A stretch of 64,000 nucleotides of DNA from Deltaproteobacteria bacterium (GCA_029261895.1 JAJDAK010000011.1:3424-67423), one strand, 5' to 3'; shown: positions 16,290 through 45,248, counted from the stretch's first letter. Made by a program: numbers and translations. Notes: generated by a model from the sequence alone, not told the origin.

Positions 16290-16354
16290 GCTAGAATTCT
16301 AACACCTCGTCAGATTTCGTTGGGGTATGCTATCTCCCCGGAGGAACACGTGTT

Positions 16355-17473: not shown

Positions 17474-17503
17474 CATATTGGCGTAACCCACAGCAGAACC
17501 TTG

Positions 17504-17551: not shown

Positions 17552-17591
17552 GAGTCGCTGACGATCGGCGGGAGCGCTACGCTCAATCGCT

Positions 17592-18284
17592 ATGAAGCGA
17601 ATTGCCTGTTTGATCGGTGCGGCGTATTTCCTATCGTCTGCCGCTGCGGCCGAATCACTCCGCGTTACCGAGCCACTCTCGATTACCGAACAAGACTGGG
17701 AATTCGTTGCCAAGAAGAACGGCATCGTGGTTTCCCAGCGACTCCACCCTGATGGTTTTCCCATCTTCCGTGGCGTCACGACCCTCGATGCGAGTCCGTG
17801 TGCATTGCTCGCTGTGATGCACGATGTCCCGCGTCATACCGAGTGGATGGAGCGATGTGCTGAGTCCAAGACGTTGAAGGTCGAATCGAAGTATCGTCGA
17901 ATCGTTTACAACCGGACCGACCTGCCCTGGCCTGCTGCCGATCGCGACACTGTGACACGTTCAATCGTGCGTGTGATCAAAACCGCGAGCACGATCGACC
18001 TTGAGTTTAAAGCGATACCAGACGTTCTAGATCCAATCGAAGATGTGGTTCGCATGCCCCGCCTTGAGGGGCGGTATCAGCTTCGTTCGACCGATCGGGG
18101 AACCGAAGTTACATATCAGGTTGCGGCGCATCCGGGTGGCCGTATTCCGGGCTGGCTCGTCAATCAGATCGTGCGGTCGATGCCGATCAAGACGCTAAGC
18201 CGACTGCCGGAGCAGGAAGCGAAACATCATGAGACCTATCAGTCATTTCGCGAGGAGTGTCAGGCCTGGCCTGCAACCAAGTAA
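17592..18284 (+). CDS. Secreted START/SRPBCC lipid-binding domain protein
   Basis: 230 aa. N-terminal signal peptide MKRIACLIGAAYFLSSAAAA. The START-like block is DVPRHTEWMERCAESKTLKV...RSIVRV. Confidence 0.6.
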   Translation: MKRIACLIGAAYFLSSAAAAESLRVTEPLSITEQDWEFVAKKNGIVVSQRLHPDGFPIFRGVTTLDASPCALLAVMHDVPRHTEWMERCAESKTLKVESKYRRIVYNRTDLPWPAADRDTVTRSIVRVIKTASTIDLEFKAIPDVLDPIEDVVRMPRLEGRYQLRSTDRGTEVTYQVAAHPGGRIPGWLVNQIVRSMPIKTLSRLPEQEAKHHETYQSFREECQAWPATK

Positions 18285-19924
18285 CCATGGCCATCAATCG
18301 TCACAGCGTCGGTGGCGAGGCGCTTTTCCGCGGCTGCACGCAGGGGACCCAGTTGAACCTTCTCCGTACCTGTGAGTTCGAGTTCCCCGGGTTCAAAGAA
18401 GAGCACGGCTTTCGGAACCTTGTATGCCGCAAGTTTACTGCGTAAAAACTCGCGCAGCTCCGCCTCTTGAATCGATGAACCTTCCACACGTACGACGCAG
18501 AGAACTACCGCTTCTCCAAGCGTCGGATGCGGAACGCCGACCGACCTACCGAGTCGAACATCGGGATGCATTTCAATATGCCCATCAATCTCGACCGGCG
18601 ATACATTCGCACCCCCGGTCTTGATCAAGCTTGAAAGTCGCCCGGTCCAATGCAGATAACCCTCCGCGTCCAGCCAACCACCGTCTTGCGTGTGGAAGTA
18701 ACCGTTCGCGTCGAAAGTTTCTTCGGGCGGCACTTTGTAATAACCACTCATCAGGGTGACGCCGCGTATGACGATCTCGCCCGTCTGCCCCGGCGATAGA
18801 ATCTCTCCGCTCTCCGCATCCATGATCCGCAGCTCCACACCCGGCAGTGGCCGGCCATGCGTCTTCTTCCGCAGTTCGAGCGCGGCATCGGCCGGGATCG
18901 AACTTGCGATCGTGAAGCTTTCGCTACAGCCATACGAACCCTCGGGATCCCAAAGGTCTTCCGTGAGCCCCGCGAACTTCGCCAACGGGTTGCTGAATTT
19001 AACCTTCTGAAGCGCGGATAAATCTCGCGTGGCCGCTGTGGGATGTTCACCAAGCTGCTTCTCCTGATGCGGCCAGGCATGTAGCGTCGTGACAGCTTCG
19101 CTTTCGATCAGATCGAGGGCCGCACCCGCTTCAAAAACCTCCTGCAAAACCAGGCATGCGCCCGCGGCGAACGTCGCACCCAAAGACATCGCGATCCCGG
19201 CTGTCCAGAAAAATGGTTGCGCAGTCCACACAACATCATCGGGTGCCAAGCGCATCTGCTCGGCGAAACGCCAGCTCTGAATCACCGGGGTACGCTGTCG
19301 ATGCATCACGCCCTTCGGCATGGCGGTGGTGCCTGAGGTGTAGATCAGCAGCGCTGGGTCGGTGGGCTTAACTTCAAGCATCACACTCTCGAGAAATTCA
19401 TCCGATACTTCGTGCCCAAGCTGAAGAAACTCGCTCGGCTCATCCATGCATTGAACACGACGCAACATCGGCAAAGCATTGGTTCGAATTCGACCCGCCG
19501 GCGCTTTTCGAATCTCGGGATATTCTTCGACAAGCTCGTCGAGATATTGATGTTTCAACAACTGTGATTGCAGCAGCAGCACTTCCGCGTCGCTATGCCG
19601 CAGAATATGATTCCGTTCCTCGCGATTCGCGAACGTATTCACCGGGACGATGACCGCTCCGATCATCCCGGCACCCAGCATATTGAAAACCCACTCTGGG
19701 CGGTTTCCAAAGAGCAGCGCGACGTGCTGCCCCTTGCCGACACCGGCGGCGAGCAGCGCTTTGGCGCGCTGTCGTGCTTCCCATTCTAAATCACGGTAGG
19801 TCCAGACACGATCTTCGAAGCGAATGCAGGCGCGATCCGCGTGGTGACCCGAAATGCGACGCAGAAACTGACCGAGTGTGAGTTCCGCTTCCGCTTGCCC
19901 CACCCACGCATCGGAAGCTTGCAT
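18260..19924 (-). CDS. AMP-dependent acyl-CoA synthetase/ligase
   Basis: 554 aa. AMP-binding motif LIYTSGTTAMPKGV. Confidence 0.85.
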   Translation of the reverse strand: MQASDAWVGQAEAELTLGQFLRRISGHHADRACIRFEDRVWTYRDLEWEARQRAKALLAAGVGKGQHVALLFGNRPEWVFNMLGAGMIGAVIVPVNTFANREERNHILRHSDAEVLLLQSQLLKHQYLDELVEEYPEIRKAPAGRIRTNALPMLRRVQCMDEPSEFLQLGHEVSDEFLESVMLEVKPTDPALLIYTSGTTAMPKGVMHRQRTPVIQSWRFAEQMRLAPDDVVWTAQPFFWTAGIAMSLGATFAAGACLVLQEVFEAGAALDLIESEAVTTLHAWPHQEKQLGEHPTAATRDLSALQKVKFSNPLAKFAGLTEDLWDPEGSYGCSESFTIASSIPADAALELRKKTHGRPLPGVELRIMDAESGEILSPGQTGEIVIRGVTLMSGYYKVPPEETFDANGYFHTQDGGWLDAEGYLHWTGRLSSLIKTGGANVSPVEIDGHIEMHPDVRLGRSVGVPHPTLGEAVVLCVVRVEGSSIQEAELREFLRSKLAAYKVPKAVLFFEPGELELTGTEKVQLGPLRAAAEKRLATDAVTIDGHGYLVAGQA

Positions 19925-19928
19925 CAGC

Positions 19929-21083
19929 TCAACCCGCCGGAAGCATGACCTCGGCTGCCCCGATTGCCATCAGATTGTCGTCCTGATTCGTCATTCTGAT
20001 TTGTAAGGTCGCGATCGGGCTTCCCGACGGATCATCGTAGTTGAGATTGGAGACCTCGCCATCGATGTACGTCACATCGCCCGTCAGCGCGGGTGCGCGG
20101 AACTTCATATCCGAGTGCACGACGAATCCCCACTCGCCCGCCCAATTGGTCAGGTAGTCGACGATCCACGCCCCCATGGATGCGCCGTAGCCGTAGCCGC
20201 GTGGCATGCCAATCAATTGCGCGTACTTCGGCTGCACGTGTCCGCGGGATGGCCCTTTGTAAAGACCGTCATTATGCGACGGGTCAACGGCCGCGCCTTC
20301 ATCGTCGCGAGACATCTCAGGCAACCAACCGGCCTCATAGGTCGAGGACCGACCTTCGTCGTAACTCGCGCCCCAAACCGTCATTAGATACGACCGCCAC
20401 TCGGTTGTGAATGTCATAAGCGAATGCGGACCGATCACGCGCCGCGGAAGTTTGTCGCCGACTTGAACAAAGAGCCGCTTTTCATGACCCAGATCAAGAA
20501 AGCTTCGGTAATACTCCAGCTTCTGACGCTCGACTTCTTCAAGTTCCTCGTCGGTCCACTGTTTCTCTTGCTGGTCTTCGAACGAGGCTCGCTTGCGAGC
20601 TTCCTCGGCCAGGTAGCGAATCGAGGTCGAGCGCTGCTTGCACACGACCTCGCCCGTTTGACCGATGTATGTGGTATCGCCACGCGAAAACATCGTGGGT
20701 CCGGCGAATTTCGTATCTTTGACTGAATAGTCAAAAAGCATCCGCTCGGAACGAATTTTATCGCCGGGCCGAATTCGTGGACCAAAGAACCACCACTCAT
20801 CGCCGCCAAAGAGCATATGCGTGCCGGGGATATTGCCTTGAATCGCCGGAACCGCGCCGTGTCCGACCGTGGTGCAAACTGCAAACGACTGCGGCGCGAC
20901 GAGTTCGCCGAAGTGACCTTCCGCTGCAAATCTCTCGTCGTAGAAGAGCGGATTGGGATTTTGCATTCCCTGCGCCCAGCGTCGGATATCGTTGACGTGA
21001 ATCGGGTCTTTGAACTGGCCGCCACCGATCGGCACGCCCACCCACCGATCAACGTCGCTTGTATCGAACGGGATCTCACTCAT
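19929..21083 (-). CDS. MaoC-like (R)-specific enoyl-CoA hydratase, double hotdog fold
   Basis: 384 aa. Sits between an acyl-CoA ligase and an amidohydrolase. The two hotdog-like halves resemble ChsH-type hydratases. Confidence 0.6.
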   Translation of the reverse strand: MSEIPFDTSDVDRWVGVPIGGGQFKDPIHVNDIRRWAQGMQNPNPLFYDERFAAEGHFGELVAPQSFAVCTTVGHGAVPAIQGNIPGTHMLFGGDEWWFFGPRIRPGDKIRSERMLFDYSVKDTKFAGPTMFSRGDTTYIGQTGEVVCKQRSTSIRYLAEEARKRASFEDQQEKQWTDEELEEVERQKLEYYRSFLDLGHEKRLFVQVGDKLPRRVIGPHSLMTFTTEWRSYLMTVWGASYDEGRSSTYEAGWLPEMSRDDEGAAVDPSHNDGLYKGPSRGHVQPKYAQLIGMPRGYGYGASMGAWIVDYLTNWAGEWGFVVHSDMKFRAPALTGDVTYIDGEVSNLNYDDPSGSPIATLQIRMTNQDDNLMAIGAAEVMLPAG

Positions 21084-27719: not shown

Positions 27720-28394
27720 CTACCCTCTTTTTGAGTCCGCCATCAGCTGCTCAACAACATCGGCGTACATCTGCCGCTTCATCGCGCCGTAGGTCTTGCG
27801 ATCCTTGCTCGCGAGCGCGGCTGCACGCTCCAACGCACGTGCACGTAGGTTTTCTTCGGGTACCGCTTCGTCGGCGATCCCCGCTATGACCGCGGCAGCG
27901 GCAGCGTAGCGCGCGCCCGTCAGCGTGGCATCGCGCCAGATGTTGGGCGTTAGCGCCGACTTCACCAGCGCCATCATTCCCGGACGAAACTGAACCTTCA
28001 AGTCAATCTCCGGTAGACAGATGTAGCCACGCTCCTGTCGCATGATGCGGAAATCATGCGCGAGCACGTGCACGGCACCCGCACCGAACGCGTGGCCGTT
28101 GATCGCCGCAATGGTAGGCATCGGAAAAGTAAGGAGTCGCGCCCAGAGCGCCTGGGTATCGGCAAGAAAGCCGATCGCCTCACGGCCAAGCTCGAGAACT
28201 GTCTGCAGATCGAAGCCGTTGGAAAAAAACTTTCCCTCGGCCGTCGTGATCAGCGCCGCAGCGCCCTCCGAAGCCTCGACCTCATCCAGCGCGTCATGGG
28301 TCGCTGTTAGAAACTCGGGCGTGATACGGTTTTCATCCGACCCGAGATTCAATACGAAGACTTCCTTCTCGCGGACCAAACTGATTTGACTCAT
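27720..28394 (-). CDS. Enoyl-CoA hydratase/isomerase (crotonase family)
   Basis: 224 aa. ...AAINGHAFGAGAVHVLAHDFRIM. Confidence 0.75.
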   Translation of the reverse strand: MSQISLVREKEVFVLNLGSDENRITPEFLTATHDALDEVEASEGAAALITTAEGKFFSNGFDLQTVLELGREAIGFLADTQALWARLLTFPMPTIAAINGHAFGAGAVHVLAHDFRIMRQERGYICLPEIDLKVQFRPGMMALVKSALTPNIWRDATLTGARYAAAAAVIAGIADEAVPEENLRARALERAAALASKDRKTYGAMKRQMYADVVEQLMADSKRG

Positions 28395-30457
28395 TTCGCT
28401 ACCTCTACGACGTAATTACCCAGATGATCTAACTCTGCCGACTGTCCTGGATACAGAACAATCGTTGTAAAACGTTCCTCGATGATGGCCGGACCATCCA
28501 CGCGATGCCCCGCGCGGAATAGATCGCCGTCATACACCGGGGTATCGACGTAACCATCGCCGAAATATGCCGGACGGCGTTCGCGTAACGCGGACTCCAC
28601 CGCTGAGCCTCCCGCATCATATTCAAGCGGCGTCGGCTTTTCCGTCTGACCGATGGCCTGGATGCGCACGGCGCGTAGCACGGGTGCCTCATCGCGCTGT
28701 GCGTAGGTGTGGAGCTCTTCGTGTTGGTCGTGGAAACGCACGATCGTTGCTTTCAGGTCGGCTTCGCGCATTCGCGTGTCGGTCAGCACCATCGGCACGG
28801 CCATATCAAAGGTTTGACCCGGATAGCAGATATTCAAACTGCGCACGAATTCAATATCCTCGCGCCCCAAACCCGCAACCTCCAACTCAGCAATCGACTG
28901 CGCTTCAGTCTCGTCCAATATCCGGTTGATGTAGTTCACATCCGCCTGTGCGGCGGGAGAAATGTAGGACCGCTGAATATCCACCAAGTAGTCTGCGACC
29001 AGGAGTCCCAATGCGGAAAACGCGGGCGAGGTCTTTGGCACGATGTAAGACTTAATTCCCAATTCTGCAGCCTGCATGCCGGCATGCATCGGACCATTTC
29101 CGCCGTAGACGACCATTTGAAACTCGCGTGGATCGAATCCTGCCTGAGATGAAACGCGGCGAATCGCGTTCGCCATATTGGCGTTGACGATTCGAAAGAT
29201 TCCGTACGCGGCTTTGACGAGCTCAAGATTCAGCGGCTTGGCGATTTTTTCTTCGATAGCTTCGCGAACGCCTTCCGACGACAACTTAAAATCGCCACCG
29301 CAGAGCGCGCCCGGATTGAGGTAGCCCAAAACGAGATTAGCGTCGCTCACCGTCGGTTCGGTGCCGCCGCGTCCGTAGCAGATTGGACCCGGATTCGCTT
29401 TCGCGCTGCGCGGACCGACCTTCAGCGCTCCCGCTTCAACATACGCGATCGAACCGCCCCCGGCACCAATGGAATGCATCTCCAACATCGGCAGCCCAAC
29501 AAGGTATCGATGCTGCCAATTCCAATAGCTTCGAATCGTCGGCGTGCCGCCATGCACGAGACAGGCTTCGTAACTGGTTCCACCCATGTCAACAGCAATG
29601 AAATTCTCGATGCCCGCGCGCTGCGCAGTTTCACACGCGCCCTTAACCCCGGCAGTCGGACCCGAGCCGAGCGCCGACACCGCACGGCGAGACATGCCCT
29701 CGGCCGTCGCGAGTCCGCTATTGGATTGCATGATCAAGAGGTCATGCGCATAGCCCGCGTTACGAAGCGCAGCTTGCAAATTCTTGAGATACGTCTCCAC
29801 ACGCGGGCCCACGTAGGCATCGACCAACGTGGTCGAAGTTCGCTCGAACTCCGGTGCGGTGGGCATCACCTCATGCGAAAGCGAAACCCGGACTCCAGGA
29901 TATTCCTCTTCGATCAACTCGCGAACGCGTTTTTCATGGGCGGCGTTGATGAACGAAAACAGCAGCACCACCGCAATCGACTCAACCCCCTGCTGCTTAA
30001 GCCGACGAATCGCTACTCGGGTCGCGGCTTCGTCTAACGGACGCACAACCTCACCTCGGAAATTCAAGCGTTCAGGAACGCCCAAGCGACGCCGCCGCGG
30101 CGCAATCGGCACCGGAGGTGGAGCCGAAGGATCCCAAATGTCTTCTTTGAAGCCCCGTCGAATATCAATTTCGTCGCGATGACCTTCGGTGGTCAGCAGG
30201 CCTGTTAACGCGCCACTCATTTCGATCATCGTGTTATCTGCGGTGGTGGTGCCGTGGACAATCAAGTCTGTGGCTGCGAGAAATGCCGCGGTGTCGAGTC
30301 CTTCGCGCGACGCGAGCTCCTGAATTGCATTCATTACACCGAGCGATTGATCTTCGAGTGTCGTCGGTGTTTTCGAGAGGATTAGCTCGCCATTCGTTCG
30401 AACCAGGACGAAATCCGTAAACGTACCGCCGACGTCGATGCCGATTCGATAACCCAT
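28391..30457 (-). CDS. Hydantoinase A / acetone carboxylase beta / 5-oxoprolinase A-type ATP-dependent subunit (HyuA family)
   Basis: 688 aa. Starts MGYRIGIDVGGTFTDFVLV. Confidence 0.85.
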   Translation of the reverse strand: MGYRIGIDVGGTFTDFVLVRTNGELILSKTPTTLEDQSLGVMNAIQELASREGLDTAAFLAATDLIVHGTTTADNTMIEMSGALTGLLTTEGHRDEIDIRRGFKEDIWDPSAPPPVPIAPRRRRLGVPERLNFRGEVVRPLDEAATRVAIRRLKQQGVESIAVVLLFSFINAAHEKRVRELIEEEYPGVRVSLSHEVMPTAPEFERTSTTLVDAYVGPRVETYLKNLQAALRNAGYAHDLLIMQSNSGLATAEGMSRRAVSALGSGPTAGVKGACETAQRAGIENFIAVDMGGTSYEACLVHGGTPTIRSYWNWQHRYLVGLPMLEMHSIGAGGGSIAYVEAGALKVGPRSAKANPGPICYGRGGTEPTVSDANLVLGYLNPGALCGGDFKLSSEGVREAIEEKIAKPLNLELVKAAYGIFRIVNANMANAIRRVSSQAGFDPREFQMVVYGGNGPMHAGMQAAELGIKSYIVPKTSPAFSALGLLVADYLVDIQRSYISPAAQADVNYINRILDETEAQSIAELEVAGLGREDIEFVRSLNICYPGQTFDMAVPMVLTDTRMREADLKATIVRFHDQHEELHTYAQRDEAPVLRAVRIQAIGQTEKPTPLEYDAGGSAVESALRERRPAYFGDGYVDTPVYDGDLFRAGHRVDGPAIIEERFTTIVLYPGQSAELDHLGNYVVEVAK

Positions 30458-32247
30458 TAGGCGCTTGGCTCCACGCGGCGGGATTTACGCAGGCGGGTGG
30501 TCGCGCCGACATCCACCTGCAAATCCAAAGCCTCGACGCTGCCGCTGAAGACAACGCCGTAGTCACGTTCGGCTGCTTCGATGGAAACAAGCTCATCGAG
30601 CACATCATCCTTGACCGCTTCAGGTTCACGCTTTAGAGCATCACCCCAACCACCGCCGCCGCCATACAGGTATTCAACCCCTTCGCCCGCAGCGTGCGGT
30701 ACAAAGTTTGCCATGCGTTCGACCCGCGTGGGCGTGTCGCCGCCGTAGTTGACGGTCAGCTGGTTCGGACTGCCGTTCTGGCCTCCGGCGATTCCGGGCA
30801 TCGGATAACGAATCCCCACCATGTAGGTCTGAATCGCCGCTGGCGCGGTCACGCGTTTCACATAACGCGAGCCAGGACAACCACGCCATTGGCCCGCTCC
30901 CCCGGAATCCATTTCATAGTCGCAACATTCGTGCAGCGTGGGAAAGATGGACTCACTGATCTCCGCCGGTGCGCGTACCAGGTTCCCAAACGACGCCGGC
31001 ATCGAGCCCCAGCCGTCTTGTCCATACACGGCGCCGCAGTAGGCGGAAAGCGTGTCCACCGAATGATCGACAAACATCTGACCTGTCTCGGGATGATCGC
31101 CAATCACGACTGTGGGCATTCCGAGCTTGTAAATCTGCGGGCACGCGCGCTCCGGAATTACCTTCGCAAGCGCCAAACAAATCGCCTCGCCGACCTCCAC
31201 GCCTGGGTGATGCGTTCCCGCAGCGACTGTTTTGCCATCCTCGGGATTGAGACAGCAGCCCTTGGGCACCACCAGCTCAATCGAGTCAAAGAAGCCTTCG
31301 TTTTTAGGAATCGCGGGATCCATCATCGACGCCAGCTGTGCAACAACGTAGCCACGTGTATTGCCGAAACTCGAATATGCTTGCAGGTTTTGCCGCATAT
31401 CCGAACCCGTGAAGTCGACCTTGAGTCTTTCGCCATCGACGGTAACCGCGCAGTGGACATGAATATCCAAGTTACCAGCAGGATCATGGTCGACGTAGAC
31501 ATCCGCTTCGTAGCTACCATCGGGCCAACGCGAGACTTCCTCGCGAAAACGTCTCGCCGCGTAATCGATCGAGTGATCCACTGCCGCTCGCACCGCATCG
31601 ATTCCGTAGCGCTCAATAATTTCGCCCAGACGCTTGGCGCCCAATTGGGCTGCACCGACCTGCGCACGAATATCACCGATGAATGTCGGCGTACGGTTAT
31701 TTATTCGCAGCATGTACATGACATCCCGCCGCTCCACGCCACGGTCGTAAACCTTTAGCGCGGGGAAACGCACGCCCTCGGCCCAGATATCGATCGCCTC
31801 CGCGTTGTACCCACCCGGCATGCCGCCACCCGTATCCGCGTGATGGCATTGAATCGACGCGATCAAGACCACTTCATCGCCAACGAGCACTGGCGCAAAC
31901 ACGTTGTAGTCCGGTAGATGTCCGCCGCCGTGATACGGATCGTTCGCTACGAAGACATCGCCCGCGCTAAAACCTTCATCTGCAAAAAACTCCAGCGCGA
32001 AACGCACCGGTAAAGTCGAAGAAAGCATGAACTGCGGAATTCCAACCGAAAGTGCGGCCAATCGGCCCCGTTCATCCAAAATGGTCGCGTTCCGTTCGTT
32101 GGACTGGTTAAGTATGGGAGTGGTCGCTGTCAGAGAAACATGGGTCGCCATTTCGAATGCGACCGTCTCCATTGCGCCCCGAATCACTTCGGCGGTCACG
32201 GAATCGATCCGATCGGCTTTGCGGGCTGAATTTCGGCGATCTGACAT
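30457..32247 (-). CDS. Hydantoinase B / oxoprolinase B-type subunit (HyuB family)
   Basis: 596 aa. It abuts hyuA directly. Confidence 0.85.
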   Translation of the reverse strand: MSDRRNSARKADRIDSVTAEVIRGAMETVAFEMATHVSLTATTPILNQSNERNATILDERGRLAALSVGIPQFMLSSTLPVRFALEFFADEGFSAGDVFVANDPYHGGGHLPDYNVFAPVLVGDEVVLIASIQCHHADTGGGMPGGYNAEAIDIWAEGVRFPALKVYDRGVERRDVMYMLRINNRTPTFIGDIRAQVGAAQLGAKRLGEIIERYGIDAVRAAVDHSIDYAARRFREEVSRWPDGSYEADVYVDHDPAGNLDIHVHCAVTVDGERLKVDFTGSDMRQNLQAYSSFGNTRGYVVAQLASMMDPAIPKNEGFFDSIELVVPKGCCLNPEDGKTVAAGTHHPGVEVGEAICLALAKVIPERACPQIYKLGMPTVVIGDHPETGQMFVDHSVDTLSAYCGAVYGQDGWGSMPASFGNLVRAPAEISESIFPTLHECCDYEMDSGGAGQWRGCPGSRYVKRVTAPAAIQTYMVGIRYPMPGIAGGQNGSPNQLTVNYGGDTPTRVERMANFVPHAAGEGVEYLYGGGGGWGDALKREPEAVKDDVLDELVSIEAAERDYGVVFSGSVEALDLQVDVGATTRLRKSRRVEPSA

Positions 32248-32295: not shown

Positions 32296-33873
32296 ATGAA
32301 CTGGCCCGAACACGTCGCGACCGTTCCAGCCGCACTCGAAGCCTGGGGCGGAAAATTCGGGTCGCGCACCGCCTTGGTGGACGGAGCGCGCCGCCTCACC
32401 TACGCCGCGCTCGATCATGAGTCCGCAAAACTCGCAGCCGGGCTCATCTCCCAGGGTGTCGGTAAAGGCCATCACGTCGGGCTGCTGATGCCAAACGGAG
32501 CCGATTGGGTGCTCGCATTTCTGGCAGCCGCCCGAATCGGCGCCGTGATCGTGCCGATCAACACGTTCTACCAAAGCCGCGAGTTGAGACGCACGTTGAA
32601 CCATGGCGATGTCGAAACCCTGCTGATGACTCAGCGCTTTGCCAACCACGATTACCCGGCATTGCTCGAGGACACGGTTCCCGGACTTTGCGATCAGACC
32701 GATTTGATTTGCTGCCCCGAGGTTCCATGCCTGCGACGTGTGTTTATTTGGGGAAACGTCGAAGTTCCCTGGGCGCGATCCGCCACCAATCTCTTGCAGT
32801 TCGGTTCTGCGTACGGGCCCTTGCAAGCTGGTCTCTCGAAGAACGTCGTACCCGCGGATCGCCTACTGCTCATGCATACGTCGGGCAGCACTGGCGAACC
32901 CAAAGCGGCAATCCATACGCATGGCTCAGTGATCCGACATTCGTACCAACTCGCCATGACCCGCGATCTAAGGGAAGACGACTGCGTTTGGTCGCCGATG
33001 CCGTTCTTCTGGATCGGTGGTTTGGTCTTTAGCCTGCTTGGAGCCCTGCACCGCGGCGCATGCTTCGTCGCGCAGGGCAAGTTCGATCCGCGCGCAACAC
33101 TCGAAATCATGGAGAAAGAACGCGTTACGTTGGCACTCGCATGGCCACATTACGGGCGCGCGCTGGCTGAGGACCCTTCGTTTAAGGCCCGTGACCTTTC
33201 CGCGCTTCGCGGCGGCAACCTCCAGGAAATTTTACCGAACGATCTTAAACCGTCGGATCCAAGCTTACGTGCGAATAGCTTAGGCATGACGGAAACCTGT
33301 GGGCCCCATACCTTCGCCGAGGGCACGTTGCCCGAACGGCTGCGCGGCTCTTTTGGCCCAGCACTTCCGGGTCTTGAACATCGCATCGAAAACGATGAAA
33401 TCTTGGTTCGCGGTTACGCGTTGATGCAAGGTCTCTATAAGGAAGAGCGCGAAGACACCTTCGATGCCGACGGTTTCTATCACACGGGTGACTCGGGCCA
33501 CTTCGATTCTGAAGGTCAGCTCTTTTTTACCGGTCGCTTGACCGAACTCATCAAGACCGCGGGCGCGAACGTCAGTCCAGCCGAAGTTGAAACCGTGCTG
33601 CTGGAGCGCCCAGAGATCGAGCAGGCCTATGTCTTTGCCATACCGGATCCCGAACGCGACCAAGTGGTCGGCGCCGCCTTGGTGTTATGCGAGGGCGCAA
33701 GTGTTGATGCTGAAGCCCTGCGCGTGCACCTCAAATCCCTGATCGCGAGTTATAAAATTCCGTCTCGAATTTTCTTTCTCGAACGCAGCGCGCTCCCCCT
33801 CACCGACACCGGCAAGGTAAATCGCCACGAGCTCTCGCGCGCACTACAAGGCTTAGAACAGCACCGCCGCTGA
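32296..33873 (+). CDS. AMP-dependent acyl-CoA synthetase/ligase
   Basis: 525 aa. LMHTSGSTGEPKAA. Confidence 0.85.
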   Translation: MNWPEHVATVPAALEAWGGKFGSRTALVDGARRLTYAALDHESAKLAAGLISQGVGKGHHVGLLMPNGADWVLAFLAAARIGAVIVPINTFYQSRELRRTLNHGDVETLLMTQRFANHDYPALLEDTVPGLCDQTDLICCPEVPCLRRVFIWGNVEVPWARSATNLLQFGSAYGPLQAGLSKNVVPADRLLLMHTSGSTGEPKAAIHTHGSVIRHSYQLAMTRDLREDDCVWSPMPFFWIGGLVFSLLGALHRGACFVAQGKFDPRATLEIMEKERVTLALAWPHYGRALAEDPSFKARDLSALRGGNLQEILPNDLKPSDPSLRANSLGMTETCGPHTFAEGTLPERLRGSFGPALPGLEHRIENDEILVRGYALMQGLYKEEREDTFDADGFYHTGDSGHFDSEGQLFFTGRLTELIKTAGANVSPAEVETVLLERPEIEQAYVFAIPDPERDQVVGAALVLCEGASVDAEALRVHLKSLIASYKIPSRIFFLERSALPLTDTGKVNRHELSRALQGLEQHRR

Positions 33874-36800
33874 GAGGCAGACCTCTGACTCCCCCTTGCT
33901 TGCTAGTTCTTCGGGTCCGAATTGCGGGTGCACGTGAATATTCGAGCGCTTGGTATGCGCGGCTTGCTTCGGAGCACGCTTCGCCCGGTAGCAAAGCAGG
34001 TGTCGAGCCGCGTCCTTCACGCCTTCTCCGTTCTTATCCGTCGCGTTGCAAAGATGCGTCGGCCGGATGATGTCATAGAGTCGATCTTCGAACTGATCCA
34101 AGATCGGCACGTCTTCAACCCTATCGAATCCGCCCACCCGCTTGAGTTTGTAACAAAGATAGTGATCGACCTGATGGGTCGACGAGTCGATCGGTTCTGG
34201 CAGCGGCTGCGCGAGGTCTTTCAGCGTCGGAACCAGCAAGCGGTCCGCCTTGAGGGTATCGACCGAAACAGTTCCCAATAGCGTCGTCACTTGAATTCCG
34301 CTGCGCTTCGTATGCTTTGGCTGACCGCCGAGCAGGCTAACGAGATAACCTTCAAGGTGCGTCGCCGAGTCTTCAACGGCAGTACCGTCATAATCAGCCG
34401 GGAGCGCGAGTCGCAACGCGCGTCTCACTTTGAAGTTCGCCGATTCTGCGAAAGTCGGATCTTCAAGGCTGACGTCAACCGTGGAAAACTTCGGCGTCCC
34501 TTTGCTCTTGGCAACGCGATAGCTCACAAAAGGATCGCCACCATCGCACGCATCACCGACGCCATCGGCATCGAAATCCAGCTGAGAGGGATTTGCGGTG
34601 ATCTCACAATTATCATCGCCGTCCAGTACCGCGTCTTCGTCGCGATCAATACCGATGCGAACGCCAGACGCAGGAGGCACGCATGTATAGGTCAACTCAG
34701 TCCCGCCGCCCGCGAGGCCACGTAGCGCAGCATCCGTCAACGGCGCTTCGTTTGCGCGGTCCGAGACGAAGTCGCCGCTGCCATTCATCACCCAGCCACG
34801 CGCCTCACCGCCGAACAAACCTTTGACCACCAGGTCACACTCATTTGCCGATGGATCGTCCGCTTTGACGAACGGCGTAGACGCGCGCGCCACCAGGAGA
34901 TCGATGCGTGCGTTCTGATCGATATCGTTTGGATCATCGAGCGTCATCTGTTGCCCGACGATGGGTGCCAGGTCGGTTTCAAACGCCAACGCAAACGCTT
35001 CCACCTGGCGCCGCTTCACATCTCCGTCGTCGGGACCATCAAATCCCACGCCCTCCTGGGAGCCAGGAATGATATCGGGGAAGGGGTTTACGTTTGGATC
35101 GGAACTGAACACATCCGCGCGCAAAAACCGAAAGAGGGTATCGGTGCTGCCATCGTGCAAGAAACCAAAGCCCCGTACCTGATCGCCCTTGTGGTCGTTA
35201 TCTCCGGCTTCAAAGAACTGCACGAGCGGCATCCCAAACATGCCTATTTTCGTATACATATTGCGCAGATGCGGAATCTTCATAAACTGCGGCTCGTTTT
35301 CGAAACTCGCGCCACCATCGGTGCCAAAGAAGCCTTGACTTGGGTCAAGCACGTGGCAACCCACACAGTTAAAGCCAAGCTGTATACCGGGAAGATCGAA
35401 ATCCGCGCCGTCGGAACGGCGAGACCCCGTCATGAAATCGCGACCCGCCTGCTCGTCCGCTGTCAAAGAGTTGTCGAGATTGCGAATCGGATTCGGTGGT
35501 AGCGTGACGTCAAGGATGAAATCTGTAAAAGCCTGCATCTCTTCGTCGCTGAGATCGCCTTCATCGCGGCCGACGAGCCCGCCGAACGCGACGTTAAACT
35601 TTTTAAACGCCGCGTCGGAATCGAATGGATCGCCGTTCGGGTCGTTACCCCCGGTACGATCCCCGCGCCAATGCATCGAACCCGAATTGAGCATGCCGCG
35701 CAGTGTTTGCGTCGTCATCGGTCCCTTCATGGGATGATGCTCGTTCGTGACATTGAAAAACGACGCCGCGATTTCCAAGCGTGTGGGTATCGGGTTGGCA
35801 ACGATGGAGCCATCGGGGTCGCCCAAGTCCCAGCCGAGTTCGTCCTTGTCGGCGAAGATATGACATGACGAACACGACGCTTCCCCATTGCTCGAGGTGA
35901 AATTCGCGTCATAGAGAAAGCGACGACCGGCGATGACGTGGTCGGGCTCCGGATTATGAAGCACATGATGGGCGATCTCATCATGCGTCGTGGTATCGAT
36001 CACGCTCAGGCCGTTGTCAAAGCGTGTGAGTACGTAGAGCTGCTGCCGCGCTTCGTCAAGAACCAAACCCGCGGGGCCGCCACCCGAAACAATGACATGA
36101 TCGTTTGGGTCCGGCGCGAAGGTATTGCTCTCCAACTCGGCAGTGCTGAAGATCCCCACTTTGCTAGAACCGAAGGCCGCGACATATATCGTGGTCCCGT
36201 CGCTCGTCAGCGCCATTTCGACGGGCGTTGCCAAACTCTTGCCCTTGACGTCCGCTGGCATTGGCGATGCGGCATACGGAATATGCTTGTTCAAATGGCG
36301 CGGCAACACCGCAGCACCGTCGAGAATCGTGATTCGGGACTGCGCGAGTTGACCACGAACCGTCGTGGCGATCGTCCCCGGCCCTTCAAAACGTACGTGG
36401 TTTTGTGAGTCGGTATTGCTGACGTAGACCTTTCCATTCACCGGGTTGACCGCCATATTGAACAGAATGGTTCCGACATGCGCGTAACGCCCCGCCGGAT
36501 CTTCAACGGGAGGATTCGCGAGTGCATCCAACGTAAAGACGTCGTAGTCAGGAAGATCGAAGCGCACGGCGTTATCCCAAACACGGTCGAGCTCATCGAC
36601 CCAGTGGGTACCGTCGTATTTGACCACCAGTCCTGTTTCCGGCGCGTCATCGCCCTCCACCGATTGATTCGGCAGCGGCGATCCGCCGGGCATGTTGACG
36701 CCTTCAATCACACACGGACCGACTAAACCACCGCCGTCGCAAACCGCACCTTCAGAAACCGACGTCGTCTGATTTCCAGACATGAAGACGCCCGCGTACA

Positions 36801-37422
36801 CCGTGCTTCCATCCGGCGTTGCCGCGAGCGCGCGCGGCGTATCCCCAAACACGGTAATAATGGTGAGCGGCGTGCCCCCCGCCGGTGCGCCCAGACTATT
36901 CGCATCAAAGACCCAGATGTCGGCGCGCCCAATGCCTTCGGTGGTTAACTGGGGATCCATGGGGCTGTTTTGACCACGATGCGCAGTGGTGATGAACGCG
37001 CGCGGAAACGGTTGATTCGGATCCGTGCGCATACCCGCAAAAACGATGTCACGCGGTTCGTCACCGGTGTGCAGCGTACGGACGACCCGCGCCGGCATGG
37101 TGGAAGCGTCAATAATCGAAACGCTGTCGGAAAGATGATTGACGACCCAAATCTCAGTGTTCGTGCGCGCAGCGATTGCGACGGGTTCGAGACCAACAGG
37201 AATCGAATGCAGATGACTGAGACCGGCAGAGGTGATTGCGAAAACCTCGACGCGATTGTCCGGCGTATTGGTCACGTAGAGCCGGCTACCATCCGGAGAA
37301 AGTGCCATCGGCCGCACCGAGCCCGACTCGAACGCGACAAACGATTGCGCCGCTTGCGCGAATGCCGGTAGCGCGAATGCCATCAATAGGATCAAAACGC
37401 CAGATCGAATACGCCGTGCCAT
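33853..37422 (-). CDS. Large secreted multidomain protein: signal peptide, YVTN-type beta-propeller, di-heme cytochrome c peroxidase/MauG-family domain, TSP3-like Ca-binding repeats, C-terminal repeated Cys modules
   Basis: ORF track 33853..37524. The start at the ATG at 37422 is the one that gives a signal peptide (MARRIRSGVLILLMAFALPAFAQA). Two CxxCH motifs: CSSCH...MHWRGDRTG and CVGCH...KIPHLRNMY. Also DRDEDAVLDGDDNCEITANPSQLDFDADGVGDACDGGD. Confidence 0.75.
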   Translation of the reverse strand: MARRIRSGVLILLMAFALPAFAQAAQSFVAFESGSVRPMALSPDGSRLYVTNTPDNRVEVFAITSAGLSHLHSIPVGLEPVAIAARTNTEIWVVNHLSDSVSIIDASTMPARVVRTLHTGDEPRDIVFAGMRTDPNQPFPRAFITTAHRGQNSPMDPQLTTEGIGRADIWVFDANSLGAPAGGTPLTIITVFGDTPRALAATPDGSTVYAGVFMSGNQTTSVSEGAVCDGGGLVGPCVIEGVNMPGGSPLPNQSVEGDDAPETGLVVKYDGTHWVDELDRVWDNAVRFDLPDYDVFTLDALANPPVEDPAGRYAHVGTILFNMAVNPVNGKVYVSNTDSQNHVRFEGPGTIATTVRGQLAQSRITILDGAAVLPRHLNKHIPYAASPMPADVKGKSLATPVEMALTSDGTTIYVAAFGSSKVGIFSTAELESNTFAPDPNDHVIVSGGGPAGLVLDEARQQLYVLTRFDNGLSVIDTTTHDEIAHHVLHNPEPDHVIAGRRFLYDANFTSSNGEASCSSCHIFADKDELGWDLGDPDGSIVANPIPTRLEIAASFFNVTNEHHPMKGPMTTQTLRGMLNSGSMHWRGDRTGGNDPNGDPFDSDAAFKKFNVAFGGLVGRDEGDLSDEEMQAFTDFILDVTLPPNPIRNLDNSLTADEQAGRDFMTGSRRSDGADFDLPGIQLGFNCVGCHVLDPSQGFFGTDGGASFENEPQFMKIPHLRNMYTKIGMFGMPLVQFFEAGDNDHKGDQVRGFGFLHDGSTDTLFRFLRADVFSSDPNVNPFPDIIPGSQEGVGFDGPDDGDVKRRQVEAFALAFETDLAPIVGQQMTLDDPNDIDQNARIDLLVARASTPFVKADDPSANECDLVVKGLFGGEARGWVMNGSGDFVSDRANEAPLTDAALRGLAGGGTELTYTCVPPASGVRIGIDRDEDAVLDGDDNCEITANPSQLDFDADGVGDACDGGDPFVSYRVAKSKGTPKFSTVDVSLEDPTFAESANFKVRRALRLALPADYDGTAVEDSATHLEGYLVSLLGGQPKHTKRSGIQVTTLLGTVSVDTLKADRLLVPTLKDLAQPLPEPIDSSTHQVDHYLCYKLKRVGGFDRVEDVPILDQFEDRLYDIIRPTHLCNATDKNGEGVKDAARHLLCYRAKRAPKQAAHTKRSNIHVHPQFGPEELASKGESEVCLSAAVLF

Positions 37423-37552
37423 GAACCATCCCTCCCAGCTTTGAAAAGCGCGTGCCTCTCGGAAAACTACATACATGCACGCGGCTCTACTCGAATGTAG
37501 TCTGAGCAGGAAGAAAAGTGGCATAATTTTATAAATTTACAGTATGAATGCA

Positions 37553-39493: not shown

Positions 39494-39874
39494 TCAGGCG
39501 TTCTCCGCTCGCGTGAACATGTACGCCCAGGCGATCAATAGGAACTGAAACGGCAGGCGGATCCAATTGATTATTCCACCGTCGCTCATTTCACCCAGTG
39601 GGATATTGTTCAACGCGACATGAATATTGGCGGGGAAAATCGCAATGAATAGTGCAATCAAGCCCCAGGCCGCGAGCACACGAAAGCGGGGAATCAGTAC
39701 AGCAGCGCCAAGCGCGATTTCCGCCACACCGGACAACCAAATCAGGAAGTCATGCGCGGGCAAGTACGGCGGCATCATCGGTTGATAGAACTCTGGACTT
39801 ACGAAGTGAGGCACACCGGCGCCGATCATCACGACACCTAGAAGCCAAAGAAGAATGCGTTTGGTTAGACTCAT
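39494..39874 (-). CDS. DoxX/YqjF-like small membrane protein
   Basis: 126 aa with 4 hydrophobic segments. Confidence 0.45.
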   Translation of the reverse strand: MSLTKRILLWLLGVVMIGAGVPHFVSPEFYQPMMPPYLPAHDFLIWLSGVAEIALGAAVLIPRFRVLAAWGLIALFIAIFPANIHVALNNIPLGEMSDGGIINWIRLPFQFLLIAWAYMFTRAENA

Positions 39875-42469: not shown

Positions 42470-43060
42470 ATGGCTCGCCCTCCTGTTACTCATACTGGCT
42501 CCGTACGTGGTCACAAGAGCTGCGGGTTCCTGCTCGTTGGGCTGCTGGTTTTCGCGACCGTGGCGAACGCCGACGAGGCCGTGCCTTGGGAATCTTTGAG
42601 CGAATCCGAACGCGAAGTATTGGCACCGCTAGAAGAGACATGGTCCGAGCTTCCGGCAAAACGTCAGCGACGTTTGCAACGTGGAGCGGCGCGTTGGGAG
42701 ACGATGGACAAGGGTGAACGCGACGGTGCGCGTAAAAAGATGCAGCGCTGGCGTGGCCTTTCAGCTGAGAAACGACAGCGCATACGCCAACGCTTCGATC
42801 GTTTCCAAAGCCTGCCAGCTGAAACCCAGGAACGTTTACGAAAGCGTCGGCGCTGGTTCCAGAGCTTGCCCAAAGAGCGCCAAGATAAGTTGCGGGAGAA
42901 ATGGCGCGGCATGACGGCAGAGGAGCGTCGGGATACTGCGAGAAAATGGAATCAGAAACGCCGAGAGCGTTTGCAGAAGAAAAAACGCTACAAGAAGAAG
43001 CTCCGACAGCAGCAGCGTGACCAGAAACAGCAGCGCCGTCAGGGCCGTGACAGCGAATGA
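42470..43060 (+). CDS. DUF3106-family periplasmic repeat protein
   Basis: 196 aa. Signal/TM segment, then repeated W..L.PE.R..LR..W motifs (WSELPAKRQRRLQRGAARW; LSAEKRQRIRQRFDRFQSLPAETQERLRKRRRWFQSLPKERQDKLREKWRGMTAEERRD). Confidence 0.6.
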   Translation: MARPPVTHTGSVRGHKSCGFLLVGLLVFATVANADEAVPWESLSESEREVLAPLEETWSELPAKRQRRLQRGAARWETMDKGERDGARKKMQRWRGLSAEKRQRIRQRFDRFQSLPAETQERLRKRRRWFQSLPKERQDKLREKWRGMTAEERRDTARKWNQKRRERLQKKKRYKKKLRQQQRDQKQQRRQGRDSE

Positions 43061-43449
43061 GCGAACGCGCCACCGGTTTCCTGCTCTGGCTTATCTTCGT
43101 TTGTGTGCTCCCGCTACCGTTCTTTCTGGTCGTAACGGGTTGGGTTCCCGTCTGGCGGCTATTTCAACTCAGTACCGCACTTGTCGAGGTACGGATCGAG
43201 CAAGGGGGTCAAGGAGCGATTGACTTCGCGCTCGTGATCTTACTCACGCAGGCGGTCGTCGGGACAATGCTATGGGGGTATCTCGCAAAACGCGCCGCGG
43301 CCTTATTGCCCAACTCGACGCGCATGAGATTGATCAGCGTTCTTATGATCGGCGTCGTGTCATTCACGCTCGCGAGTCAATTCGACGTCTACGGCACGCC
43401 TTTCAGGCAAAAGGCGTTACGTGGGACCCTGCTTGAGGTCGCGGAGTGA
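43057..43449 (+). CDS. Small integral membrane protein, function unknown
   Basis: 130 aa with 4 hydrophobic segments. 4-nt overlaps with both flanking genes. Confidence 0.45.
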   Translation: MSERATGFLLWLIFVCVLPLPFFLVVTGWVPVWRLFQLSTALVEVRIEQGGQGAIDFALVILLTQAVVGTMLWGYLAKRAAALLPNSTRMRLISVLMIGVVSFTLASQFDVYGTPFRQKALRGTLLEVAE

Positions 43450-45248
43450 TTCGCAAGCTCTTCGGCATCTGGATGCTCGTACTATTGCCGCTCGGTGCCC
43501 CTGCAGAACCGCAACGTTGCGATGACTATAACGCCGAACGGAACGCCTACTTCGGCGACACCCACGTTCATACCGCGCTCAGCTTCGACGCAAACGCATT
43601 GGGCGTGCGCAACACGCCCTACGATGCGTATCGCTTTGCTCAGGGTGAACGTGTCGGCCTACAGCCCTACGATCCCAACGATCGCCCGCTTCGTTCGGTA
43701 AAGCTTGGGCGACCGCTCGACTTCGCCATCGTCACAGATCACGCGAGTTTGCTAGGTGAGATTCGACTTTGCCAACAGCCCGACTCGGGAGCGCACGAAT
43801 CTGCGGTCTGCCGGTTGTATCGACGCTGGCCGCTCCTCGCTTACTTCGTGGTCAACAGCCGGACATTCAACGTAGCCAACCCGATGCGCTACTCGTTCTG
43901 CGGAGAAAACGGTCAGCTCTGCCGCGATGCGGCCGCGGCACCGTGGAAAATGATCCAAGACGCGGCGGATGCGGCAGATGATCCCTCCCCTATGTGTCGT
44001 TTCACCAGTTTTGTTGGTTACGAATGGAGTGGCGGCCCCGAATCCAAAATGATTCACCGTAATGTGATCTTTCGGAACCGGGTCGTTCCGGACCATCCGG
44101 TCGGCTATATCGACGAACCCACAGTCAAGGGCTTATGGTCATCGCTTCGCAAGAATTGTCTCGACCGGGATAACGGCTGCGACGTACTCACAATTCCTCA
44201 TAATTCAAATTTAAGCGGCGGCCTACTCTTTCAACATTCACCCGCAGATGCGAAAGAACGTGCCTTCTTCGAACCTCTCGTTGAAATCATGCAGCATAAG
44301 GGCGACTCGGAATGTAGTGTTGAGACCAGCCCAACCGAAGACGAACTCTGTGGTTTCGAAAAACTTCCCTTCGCACAGATGGATCAACAACCCTTTAAAT
44401 TTCTTTGGTCGCAAGCGAACTCGCAAAGTTACGTACGCGATGCACTCGGACGCGGCTTGATCGAAACTCAAAACGGCCGCGCCAATCCCTTCAAGTTTGG
44501 CATCATCGCTTCCACCGATTCGCATCTGGGTACCCCCGGGCTGGTGGATGAATCCGCTTATCCCGGGCACGGTGCCGGCGGCGATACGAGTCGGGTTGAA
44601 ATCGCGGCACGTCCTGACGCGGCCGAGTTCAACCCGGGCGGTCTCGCGGTGGTCTGGGCGGAAGAAAACTCCCGCGAGGCGATTTTTAAAGCCATGCGCC
44701 GTCGCGAAACCTATGGCACGAGTGGCCCTCGCATTCGGCTACGTTTTTTCGCGGGGAGCGGTCTCGCTGAGGACCTCTGTGAACGCTCCGATTTCGTAAG
44801 TCAGGGTTATGCCCATGGCGTGCCGATGGGTGGCACGTTAAAGCTGGAGCCTGGCGGGGCGGCGCCACGCTTCGCCGTCTGGGCGGGTCAGGATCCCGAC
44901 GGCAACCTCCTGCGGAAAATCCAAATCGTTAAACTCAGTGTTCGTGGCGACGAAATCTTAGAACGTGTGCATGACGTGGCCACCCATCCGGGTCAGGAGG
45001 CGAGCGTCGATCTCAACACCTGTAAGACCTTCGGCTCCGGCGCCTCCTCACTTTGCGCCGTTTGGCGCGACCCCGACTATCAAGCACACGAACAGTCCAC
45101 CTACTATGTTCGCGTGCTCGAGAACCCCAGCTGCCGCTGGACGCAGCACCTCTGTATTCGTAATCCTAACGCCTGCTCGGACGTGCCGCCGATCCAGCAA
45201 GAGCGTGCGTGGAGTTCTCCTATCTGGCTGGGCAATCCGGTACACTAG
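43446..45248 (+). CDS. Secreted DUF3604-like protein (PHP-type metal-dependent phosphoesterase fold predicted)
   Basis: 600 aa. Signal peptide, then YFGDTHVHTALSFDA close to the N-terminus. Confidence 0.55.
   Translation: MIRKLFGIWMLVLLPLGAPAEPQRCDDYNAERNAYFGDTHVHTALSFDANALGVRNTPYDAYRFAQGERVGLQPYDPNDRPLRSVKLGRPLDFAIVTDHASLLGEIRLCQQPDSGAHESAVCRLYRRWPLLAYFVVNSRTFNVANPMRYSFCGENGQLCRDAAAAPWKMIQDAADAADDPSPMCRFTSFVGYEWSGGPESKMIHRNVIFRNRVVPDHPVGYIDEPTVKGLWSSLRKNCLDRDNGCDVLTIPHNSNLSGGLLFQHSPADAKERAFFEPLVEIMQHKGDSECSVETSPTEDELCGFEKLPFAQMDQQPFKFLWSQANSQSYVRDALGRGLIETQNGRANPFKFGIIASTDSHLGTPGLVDESAYPGHGAGGDTSRVEIAARPDAAEFNPGGLAVVWAEENSREAIFKAMRRRETYGTSGPRIRLRFFAGSGLAEDLCERSDFVSQGYAHGVPMGGTLKLEPGGAAPRFAVWAGQDPDGNLLRKIQIVKLSVRGDEILERVHDVATHPGQEASVDLNTCKTFGSGASSLCAVWRDPDYQAHEQSTYYVRVLENPSCRWTQHLCIRNPNACSDVPPIQQERAWSSPIWLGNPVH

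Follow-up and report, generated by a model that had tools for sequence, protein, structure and literature searches.

Which kind of protein is encoded at positions 33853-37422 of a 64,000-nucleotide stretch of Deltaproteobacteria bacterium DNA (GCA_029261895.1 JAJDAK010000011.1:3424-67423; the whole stretch is called the window below)? An initial annotation, made from the sequence alone, had described a secreted protein of 1189 aa combining a YVTN-type beta-propeller, a di-heme domain of the cytochrome c peroxidase (CCP)/MauG family and thrombospondin type-3 (TSP3) repeats. Family models, profile-profile comparison and fold searches all agree with this architecture, including the signal peptide. 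On balance we favour, from sequence and predicted structure, a Sec-exported c-type cytochrome enzyme in which a YVTN propeller is fused to a divergent di-heme domain and a beta-rich domain (core about residues 30-925). The protein carries two heme-attachment motifs with a conserved Trp between them, and its fusion with the propeller is found throughout a large family.

The gene is an uninterrupted open reading frame (ORF) of 1189 codons on the minus strand, from the ATG at 37422 to the stop codon at 33853-33855 (ORF list and translation). The initial annotation was right about the gene but left the strand unstated. A plus-strand reading of 33853-37422 was rejected because its translation is full of stops. 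A database protein (P0001) is identical to the window protein; the computed mass of the mature form is about 125 kDa and its pI 4.7. The central features are as follows (AF2, AlphaFold2 model; bCCP, bacterial CCP; HZS, hydrazine synthase).

33853..37422, minus strand: complete coding sequence, 1189 aa plus stop (ORF list, translation)
35953..37335, minus strand: seven-bladed YVTN-type beta-propeller, residues about 30-490 (TIGR02276, 1l0q, AF2, Foldseek)
34978..35952, minus strand: divergent di-heme cytochrome c domain of the bCCP/MauG/HZS-gamma type, residues about 491-815 (profile, hhalign, AF2, Foldseek)
35860..35874, minus strand: heme 1 attachment site C517-S-S-C520-H521, followed by W531-D-L-G-D (100% conserved)
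35668..35670, minus strand: Trp585 in MHWRGDR, which probably corresponds to the inter-heme Trp of bCCP (QFWDGRA) and MauG (motif comparison)
35353..35367, minus strand: heme 2 attachment site C686-V-G-C689-H690 (100% conserved)

The heme region is a divergent member of the bCCP/MauG superfamily

A profile of the heme region, built from 22 diverse sequences, was searched against the PDB sequences. The best match was HZS-gamma (5c2v_C, E 8.9e-10), in two stretches spanning both hemes, followed by MbnH (3.7e-5), Nitrosomonas CCP (2e-3) and then Shewanella CcpA and BthA. Comparison of the profile with an HZS-gamma alignment by hhalign gave a probability of 98.8% (E 1.1e-16) and paired residues about 489-813 with HZS-gamma residues 61-339, which is nearly the whole subunit including its last helix. 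As the database gave fragments of HZS-gamma, a composite sequence was built; the full 5c2v_C sequence was later obtained from the PDB alignment. The full-length sequence profile matches both chain B and chain C of PDB 5c2v.

The full-length AF2 model is poor in the heme region (pLDDT 50-80), and mainly propellers came up in its fold search. A second model, of residues 476-935 and computed from 109 sequences, reached a pLDDT of 89.1 and a pTM of 0.88. Foldseek with this heme-domain model returned di-heme proteins of the bCCP/MauG type at all PDB ranks from 1 to 13, with HZS-gamma first (E 1.2e-6), followed by BthA, YhjA, MbnH, MauG and the Geobacter and Rhodobacter CCPs.

The Pfam and NCBIfam scans for a direct family name yielded generic propeller and TSP3 matches and sub-threshold CCP, HZS and MbnH matches only. 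According to the initial annotation, absence of CCP-family HMM hits despite the CxxCH motifs would speak against its reading. There is indeed no such hit at the Pfam threshold, but this is outweighed by the hhalign probability and the uniform Foldseek ranking. The CCP assignment accordingly depends on the profile and fold comparisons, and these stronger tests, applied to sequence and models, place the heme region in the bCCP/MauG superfamily despite the sub-threshold Pfam score.

Heme sites and conserved residues

All motifs quoted in the initial annotation were found: CSSCH (517-521), MHWRGDRTG (583-591), CVGCH (686-690) and KIPHLRNMY (715-723). Exactly two CxxCH motifs occur in 120 of the 120 closest relatives and in 110 of the 114 representatives with a complete heme region. 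The pair exceeds chance expectation because all 120 relatives carry two motifs and both are 100% conserved in 56 diverse representatives. W531, K566, Y723 and H380 are equally invariant in this set of 56, and, besides His380, the sole fully conserved potential ligands outside CxxCH are Y504, K566 and Y723. No Cys is present between residues 521 and 686, which leaves none for a third heme thioether.

Other CCP hallmarks are recognizable. Trp585 is 96% conserved; its equivalence to Trp94 of Pa-CCP and Trp93 of MauG was assigned by motif, without superposition. Downstream of the heme 2 motif, K715-IPHLRNM-Y723 and L755-HDGS correspond to FKVPxLRN and PYFHDG of CCP. The segments KGPMTTQ and KIPHLRN align, at the sequence level only, with the segments that form the interdomain Ca2+ site of CCP. 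His563, which is 91% conserved, lies roughly at the position of the distal His71 of bCCP in an alignment made by eye.

The axial and distal positions differ. In the family alignment, residues 765-800, the usual location of the sixth ligand of heme 2, contain no conserved Met, His or Tyr. The segment 773-800, which takes the place of the bCCP Met, the MauG Tyr and the distal His of HZS-gamma, is variable and gappy and has no conserved His, Met, Tyr or Lys. Residues 778-799 (nt 35026-35091) are a 22-residue insertion after the HDG motif that is absent from most relatives. Between W585 and the AFxxFNxAFG helix, the protein is about 18 residues shorter than Nitrosomonas CCP, which has EQAAGPIANPKEM there, according to a manual alignment of low confidence. 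From its sequence, the distal Gln/Glu segment (QAxGPxxNPxEM in CCP) looks deleted. A D601-E602 pair, conserved in most relatives, might substitute for the distal acid.

The propeller and its invariant histidine

The YVTN-like repeats noted initially were confirmed by TIGR02276, which matches in three stretches with 67.9 bits (cut-off 27.85, NCBIfam scan), and by a match to the archaeal S-layer YVTN propeller 1l0q (E 1.7e-15). Seven repeats were counted from the strand order of the full-length AF2 model, in which the pLDDT of the propeller is mostly above 90. The best Foldseek match of this model is HZS-beta (5c2v_B, E 1.6e-16, TM 0.72 on the target); further structural matches of the propeller include 1l0q and YncE. 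About 100 propeller positions are invariant among 57 relatives, and H380, W92, Y209, W274 and Y413 are 93-100% conserved in the 56 representatives. Two segments stand out from the regular repeats.

36547..36756, minus strand: about 70 aa inserted into propeller repeat 4, residues 223-292 (AF2 strand order, conservation)
36226..36303, minus strand: propeller loop of about 25 residues (PRHLNKHIPY...) at the junction of blades 5 and 6, residues 374-399 (conservation, AF2 secondary structure)

The insertion has conserved PGGxPxP and PExGLIVK motifs and W274; its cysteine pair C228/C237 is only about 45% conserved. His380 (nt 36283-36285, minus strand) is the sole propeller His that is kept in 56 of 56 representatives. 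Because of this, and because it lies in the 374-399 loop, we propose that it may act as a distal or gating residue or provide the sixth ligand that is missing. By analogy, the position of this loop may be comparable to that of the blade-6 loop of HZS-beta described in PMC12758564. A multi-copper or multi-His site of the kind found in NosZ or thiocyanate dehydrogenase was rejected, as just one His is invariant.

The fusion is a trait of a large family

In a search space of 1.84 billion representatives, at least 2,578 clusters (50% identity) match the heme region at E<=1e-3; with the limit set to E<=1e-30, 590 remain. A scan of one genome per species revealed at least 587 stretches that encode a relative. 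Hosts belong to Binatia, Myxococcota, Gammaproteobacteria (Sulfuricaulis, Thiohalobacter, Nevskia), Entotheonella and Acidobacteriota. Among the Myxococcota matches are complete chromosomes of Sorangium cellulosum So0157-2 and other Sorangium strains, as well as Hyalangium and Myxococcus qinghaiensis. Family members have 950-1570 aa, with 43-63% identity across phyla over the core of about 900 residues, and several metagenome-assembled genomes (MAGs) contain two copies on separate contigs.

The propeller precedes the heme domain in 68 of the 68 representatives with a sufficient N-terminus. Shorter representatives look like truncated gene fragments, most of which keep a partial propeller. The identical protein was also found on an independently assembled Logan contig. 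From the 68 representatives and the complete Sorangium genomes it follows that the fusion is a family trait and not an assembly artefact; the initial annotation had named an assembly fusion of two genes as a possible refutation, and this is excluded by the same representatives and by the genomes of these cultured strains.

The family is hidden by its annotation. Database names are limited to beta-propeller protein, YncE, YVTN, lactonase or accidental labels, and none of the relatives is named a cytochrome. Misleading names (P0089, P0002, P0003 and others) include 'Anti-sigma-I factor RsgI2', 'sugar lactone lactonase YvrE' and 'DNA-binding beta-propeller fold protein YncE'; the RsgI2 name probably stems from a PT-rich linker. 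NCBIfam holds no family-specific model, and our literature searches found no paper describing the family. One relative lies on a contig of 87 kb that was assigned by binning to the archaeon Nitrosopumilus sp. (CAXQPB010000037.1, L018, 10001-12865). This contig is probably mis-binned, or else reflects a transfer event; all other hosts are bacteria.

Start codon, export signal and C-terminal modules

The remaining features of the gene concern its start and the region downstream of the heme domain.

37430..37436, minus strand: Shine-Dalgarno-like GGGAGGG, 7 nt 5' of the ATG at 37422 (read from the sequence)
37354..37422, minus strand: signal peptide of the Sec type, residues 1-23, MARRIRSGVLILLMAFALPAFA followed by QA(AQ) (judged by inspection of the translation)
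34648..34977, minus strand: family-specific beta-rich domain, residues 816-925 (AF2 pLDDT, conservation)
34528..34647, minus strand: one TSP3 Ca-binding repeat unit, residues 926-965 (PDB, NCBIfam, motif)
33889..34311, minus strand: DUF7450 (PF24247), residues about 1038-1178 (Pfam scan of the tail alone)

The mechanically called ORF reaches further upstream, to 37524. This start was rejected in favour of the ATG at 37422 in view of the ribosome-binding site, the starts of the homologs and the signal peptide. The ATG at 37422 is the better start because of the spacing of GGGAGGG, the conservation of M1 and the signal-peptide-like N-terminus: M1 is at least 90% conserved in the alignment of relatives, which start at the equivalent Met. 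By inspection, MARRIRSGVLILLMAFALPAFA resembles a signal peptide, as had been noted initially, and residues 2-20, within this region, are helical in the full-length AF2 model. A scan for promoters and terminators gave no more sites than shuffled controls, within chance expectation.

The beta-rich domain has a pLDDT of about 95 in both AF2 models, an invariant G823-Q-Q825 and a probable C862-C914 disulfide. It has no Pfam match and, taken apart from the heme domain, no significant fold match in the PDB. It is followed by the motif pair DRDEDAVLDGDDNC (926-939) and DFDADGVGDACD (949-960). This agrees with the TSP3 pattern DxDxDxxxDxxDNC ... DxDxDGxGDxCD with conserved Cys, for which the sequence was checked; the type-3 repeats of thrombospondin-2 (PDB) match with E 1.2e-6 and TSP3-containing NCBIfam models with E 5e-9. 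The TSP3 assignment of the initial annotation is thus correct in kind; there is a single unit rather than several repeats, and Ala where Gly had been written.

DUF7450 scores 30.3 bits against a cut-off of 27 when the tail (the last 150 residues) is scanned alone, and 25.2 bits in the full-length scan; AF2 confidence is low over this region. It is shared by only a subset of relatives (P0022, P0026 and P0046); a precomputed PF24247 match exists for two relatives. After residue about 930, the tails of the relatives are modular and of varied composition. Some consist of nothing but two TSP3 repeats; others contain unknown domains joined to PT-rich linkers, Cys-rich repeats similar to DUF4215, segments resembling dockerin, ends of the PEP-CTERM-like or membrane-anchor kind, or DUF7450. 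Read from the sequences, modular tails and a signal peptide fit an exported, often surface-tethered protein, the interchangeable tail probably serving localization or tethering.

Relation to hydrazine synthase and to di-heme peroxidases

The closest solved counterpart of both halves is HZS. As in its beta and gamma subunits (5c2v B and C), a seven-bladed YVTN-type propeller is followed, in the same order, by a bCCP/MauG-like di-heme domain, HZS-beta being the best structural match of the propeller and HZS-gamma the best profile and fold match of the heme domain. In Ca. Scalindua the two subunits are fused into one protein (PMC12758564). Shared with HZS-gamma are WDLGD after heme 1 (gamma, SCASCHY...WDLGD) and LRxxY...HDG near heme 2, and both proteins have an insertion loop late in the propeller (PMC12758564). 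The initial annotation missed this likeness, as it did the beta-rich domain, the DUF7450 tail and the very large family.

Identity to HZS-gamma is nevertheless only about 16% in the Foldseek alignment and 25% over the hhalign columns, and the residues that define HZS-gamma (PMC12758564, PMC12607021) are replaced. Cys165, which provides the third heme thioether, has no counterpart and aligns with Asn610. Asp168 aligns, in a region of low confidence, with the near-invariant Phe613. His144 corresponds to Trp585, as it does to Trp in bCCP, MauG and non-anammox homologs (PMC12758564). Where gamma has a distal ligand of the bis-His type, the protein has none. Further differences are the lack of an alpha-subunit gene nearby and of any match of the family profiles to 5c2v chain A, the extra beta-rich domain and C-terminal modules, the larger propeller with its insertion of 70 aa and the non-anammox hosts. 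Judged by its sequence, the protein is not a hydrazine synthase.

Homologs of HZS beta-gamma from outside the anammox bacteria were described by Hagglund et al. (2025, PMC12758564), who report Trp at the position of gamma-His144 and an unknown function. They resemble the present family in combining propeller and di-heme domain in non-anammox hosts and in this Trp. Those listed have about 600-690 aa and are 24-30% identical to the Scalindua protein, and many adjoin an HZS-alpha-like gene and a CRTAC1/FG-GAP gene. The present family, in contrast, has 950-1570 aa, is far more distant and is without such neighbours. Among the hosts in those entries of the survey's supplement that were compared, Sorangium, Myxococcus, Hyalangium and Nevskia do not occur.

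The protein resembles bCCP, MauG, MbnH, BthA and YhjA in its fold, in the spacing of about 170 residues between two CxxCH motifs, in the inter-heme Trp and in the LRN and HDG motifs. Unlike bCCP, it has no Met ligand about 14 residues after HDG, and the distal-pocket segment is shortened in the manual alignment; unlike MauG and BthA, it has no Tyr ligand at the expected place. The fusion to a propeller and the score below the PF03150 threshold also set the family apart from the enzymes of this superfamily. A Pfam-based superfamily network (PMC6405878) would consequently miss it. By its sequence features, it is neither a canonical peroxidase nor a MauG. As the sixth ligand of bCCP and the HZS-specific residues are missing and the distal segment looks deleted, we expect chemistry other than plain peroxide scavenging or hydrazine synthesis.

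Divergent members of the bCCP superfamily are known that carry out oxygenation and not peroxide removal: the rubber oxygenase RoxA and the fatty-acid di-heme dioxygenases of Pseudomonas. These enzymes are exported, and RoxA homologs occur in myxobacteria. They serve here as a functional analogy only, as they are without a propeller; no RoxA entry was noted among the PDB sequence matches to E 10 or among the 50 fold matches listed.

Proposed mechanism and alternatives

By analogy with bCCP, MauG and HZS-gamma, heme 2 (C686/C689/H690) would exchange electrons with a partner or substrate, and Trp585 may relay electrons or holes between the hemes. Heme 1 (C517/C520/H521) would then be the reaction site for a small molecule, such as H2O2, O2 or an N-oxide. 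The propeller might pack on the heme domain as HZS-beta does on gamma, so that the His380 loop could shape or gate the active-site channel or supply a ligand.

Several points weigh against this proposal. Pfam CCP_MauG (PF03150) scores 14 bits against a cut-off of 25.6 (E 0.079) over only 27 residues (499-525), and a precomputed PF03150 match exists for just 3 of the 120 closest relatives. The TM-scores to solved di-heme enzymes are modest (0.3-0.5), and the AF2 models contain no heme. The window protein has Ser602 (nt 35617-35619), a position held by Glu in 48 of 56 relatives; should Glu602 serve as the distal acid, the present copy may not be typical of the family. Neither a conserved neighbour nor an electron donor nor a substrate-related gene was found at 76-81 loci, analysed once for ORFs of at least 90 aa within 10 kb and once for ORFs of at least 60 aa within about 4 kb. 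Finally, the reaction class that we regard as most likely by analogy, an oxidant-dependent oxidation of an extracytoplasmic substrate, is a guess. The initial annotation had put forward, as possibilities, an extracellular redox enzyme for a bulky or insoluble substrate and a peroxide-dependent enzyme that would modify proteins.

The protein might instead be an ordinary periplasmic CCP that removes H2O2 via a small cytochrome, with propeller and tail as accessory decoration. Such a reading, which we consider unlikely, would be in keeping with the CCP-type fold, with the motifs FLYDA...SCxSCH, MHWRGDR/QFWDGRA, KIPHLRN/FKVPxLRN and LHDGS/YFHDGS and with the rough, by-eye correspondence of His563 (91%) to the distal His71 of bCCP. 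It sits badly with the variable, gappy segment 773-800, where the Met ligand of bCCP has no conserved equivalent, with the sub-threshold PF03150 score and with a stretch about 18 residues shorter, in the low-confidence alignment, than the distal Gln/Glu region of Nitrosomonas (EQAAGPIANPKEM). About 100 invariant propeller positions in 57 relatives are hard to square with decoration, and the presence of two copies on separate contigs in several MAG assemblies also argues against it. Equally doubtful is a self-contained extracytoplasmic oxidase of a new type, whose MauG-like module oxidizes, or works with, a site in its own propeller (the His380 loop, Trp/Tyr) and thus yields a protein-derived cofactor or metal centre. 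Slightly less probable still is a maturase of the MauG/MbnH kind acting within its own polypeptide, where oxidation of propeller Trp, Tyr or His would create a cofactor or metal site and the propeller would be the catalyst. There is a precedent in that MauG acts on methylamine dehydrogenase, the large subunit of which is a propeller; a MauG-like gene is also said to accompany the methanethiol oxidase gene SBP56. MbnH and BthA rank with the best matches by fold and by sequence, conservation extends to the inter-heme Trp and, at 93-100%, to H380, W92, Y209, W274 and Y413 of the propeller, and the lack of a separate partner gene fits a self-contained system. However, the expected position holds no Tyr ligand of the MauG type, the single invariant propeller His makes a multi-His metal site unlikely, and any modification is proposed purely by analogy.

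N-oxide chemistry resembling that of HZS-gamma, for example conversion of NO to hydroxylamine by a stand-alone beta-gamma module, appears improbable. Both halves have their closest solved structures in HZS-beta and HZS-gamma, and WDLGD and LRxxY are shared; yet the interval 521-686 offers no Cys for gamma-Cys165, Asp168 is replaced by Phe613 (low-confidence alignment) and His144 by Trp, there is no alpha-like gene nearby, and the window has no other ORF of at least 150 aa with CxxCH. The hosts include Sorangium, Myxococcus and Nevskia, which we take to be aerobes. The non-anammox HZS homologs have been judged non-equivalent (PMC12758564). A surface protein without catalytic function, either an adhesin or an extracellular electron conduit, whose hemes only carry electrons while the TSP3 and tail modules mediate attachment, would explain the variable tails, some with anchor-like ends. 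We regard it as very improbable: identity remains at 43-63% across phyla over about 900 residues, the conserved residues look like those of an active site, a conduit would need more than two hemes and all of the closest relatives are enzymes. The chance that propeller and cytochrome genes were joined by an assembly or gene-calling error is negligible, given the identical protein on the Logan contig, the hundreds of contigs with this architecture, complete Sorangium chromosomes among them, and the 68 of 68 representatives; no point in its favour was found.

Significance

The protein is an unannotated, strongly divergent variant of a known enzyme superfamily and as such not categorically new. 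Its architecture has previously been discussed only for hydrazine synthase and nearer homologs. The family is a very large, cross-phylum group of c-type di-heme proteins which is invisible to standard annotation and, by construction, absent from Pfam-based surveys of bCCP/MauG (PMC6405878). Its recognition widens the known sequence range of an enzyme class whose high-valent heme chemistry is noted as unusual, and the apparent lack of the usual sixth ligand and distal residues, together with the invariant propeller His, predicts an atypical heme environment.

The origin of HZS is debated, either de novo or from pre-existing periplasmic heme proteins (PMC12758564). The family supports a widespread module of propeller plus di-heme domain and so bears on this debate. 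Remote HZS-like genes are already taken in metagenomic studies as a sign that other phyla have anammox potential (PMC11828985), and the present protein is a concrete HZS-like case that is not to be taken for an anammox marker. If the self-contained oxidase were true, the reaction catalysed by the family, with its thousands of members in Binatia, Myxococcota, Gammaproteobacteria and Acidobacteriota, would be one that no di-heme enzyme has so far been assigned, and the family would represent the kind of widespread ancestral beta-gamma module that was recruited into hydrazine synthase.

Genomic neighbourhood

Upstream on the same strand lie genes for HDOD, MauE/DoxX-like, phosphotriesterase-family and PAD_porph-type deiminase proteins; downstream, a convergent gene (32296-33873, plus strand) encodes an AMP-binding acyl-CoA ligase. 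The 3' ends of the di-heme and ligase genes overlap tail-to-tail by 21 nt (33853-33873). The commonest neighbour family among relatives is a generic histidine kinase (10 loci), and otherwise rpoN-region synteny is seen among close relatives. The operon context of the window is not conserved elsewhere and hence no functional inference was drawn from it. Within the 64-kb window, no other ORF of at least 150 aa contains CxxCH, and there is no paralog or other cytochrome; methylamine dehydrogenase genes and a mau or mbn operon context are likewise absent.

The MauE/DoxX-like ORF, two genes upstream (39494-39874, minus strand), encodes a membrane protein of 126 aa that matches MauE with 29.3 bits (cut-off 27, E 1.2e-6). 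Its presence is suggestive, as MauE is part of the MauG gene cluster, but it is not conserved beside the relatives.

A few kb upstream are genes for a DUF3106 protein (42470-43060, plus strand) and a DUF3604 protein of 600 aa (43446-45248, plus strand, 540 bits). From 27720-32247 (minus strand) and further downstream on locus L001, we found a hydantoinase B/A pair (oxoprolinase or acetone-carboxylase-like), an enoyl-CoA hydratase and three acyl-CoA dehydrogenases, and at 15078-21083 a further CoA-transferase, SDR, acyl-CoA ligase and MaoC-like dehydratase. Together, the genes from hydantoinase to MaoC form a lipid/acyl-CoA catabolic neighbourhood. A c-di-GMP-I riboswitch aptamer (RF01051) is located at 17266-17361 (plus strand, 51.9 bits, gathering score 35). 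It precedes an ORF of 230 aa for a START/SRPBCC (polyketide-cyclase-like) protein at 17592-18284 (plus strand), a gene type uncommon for this riboswitch.

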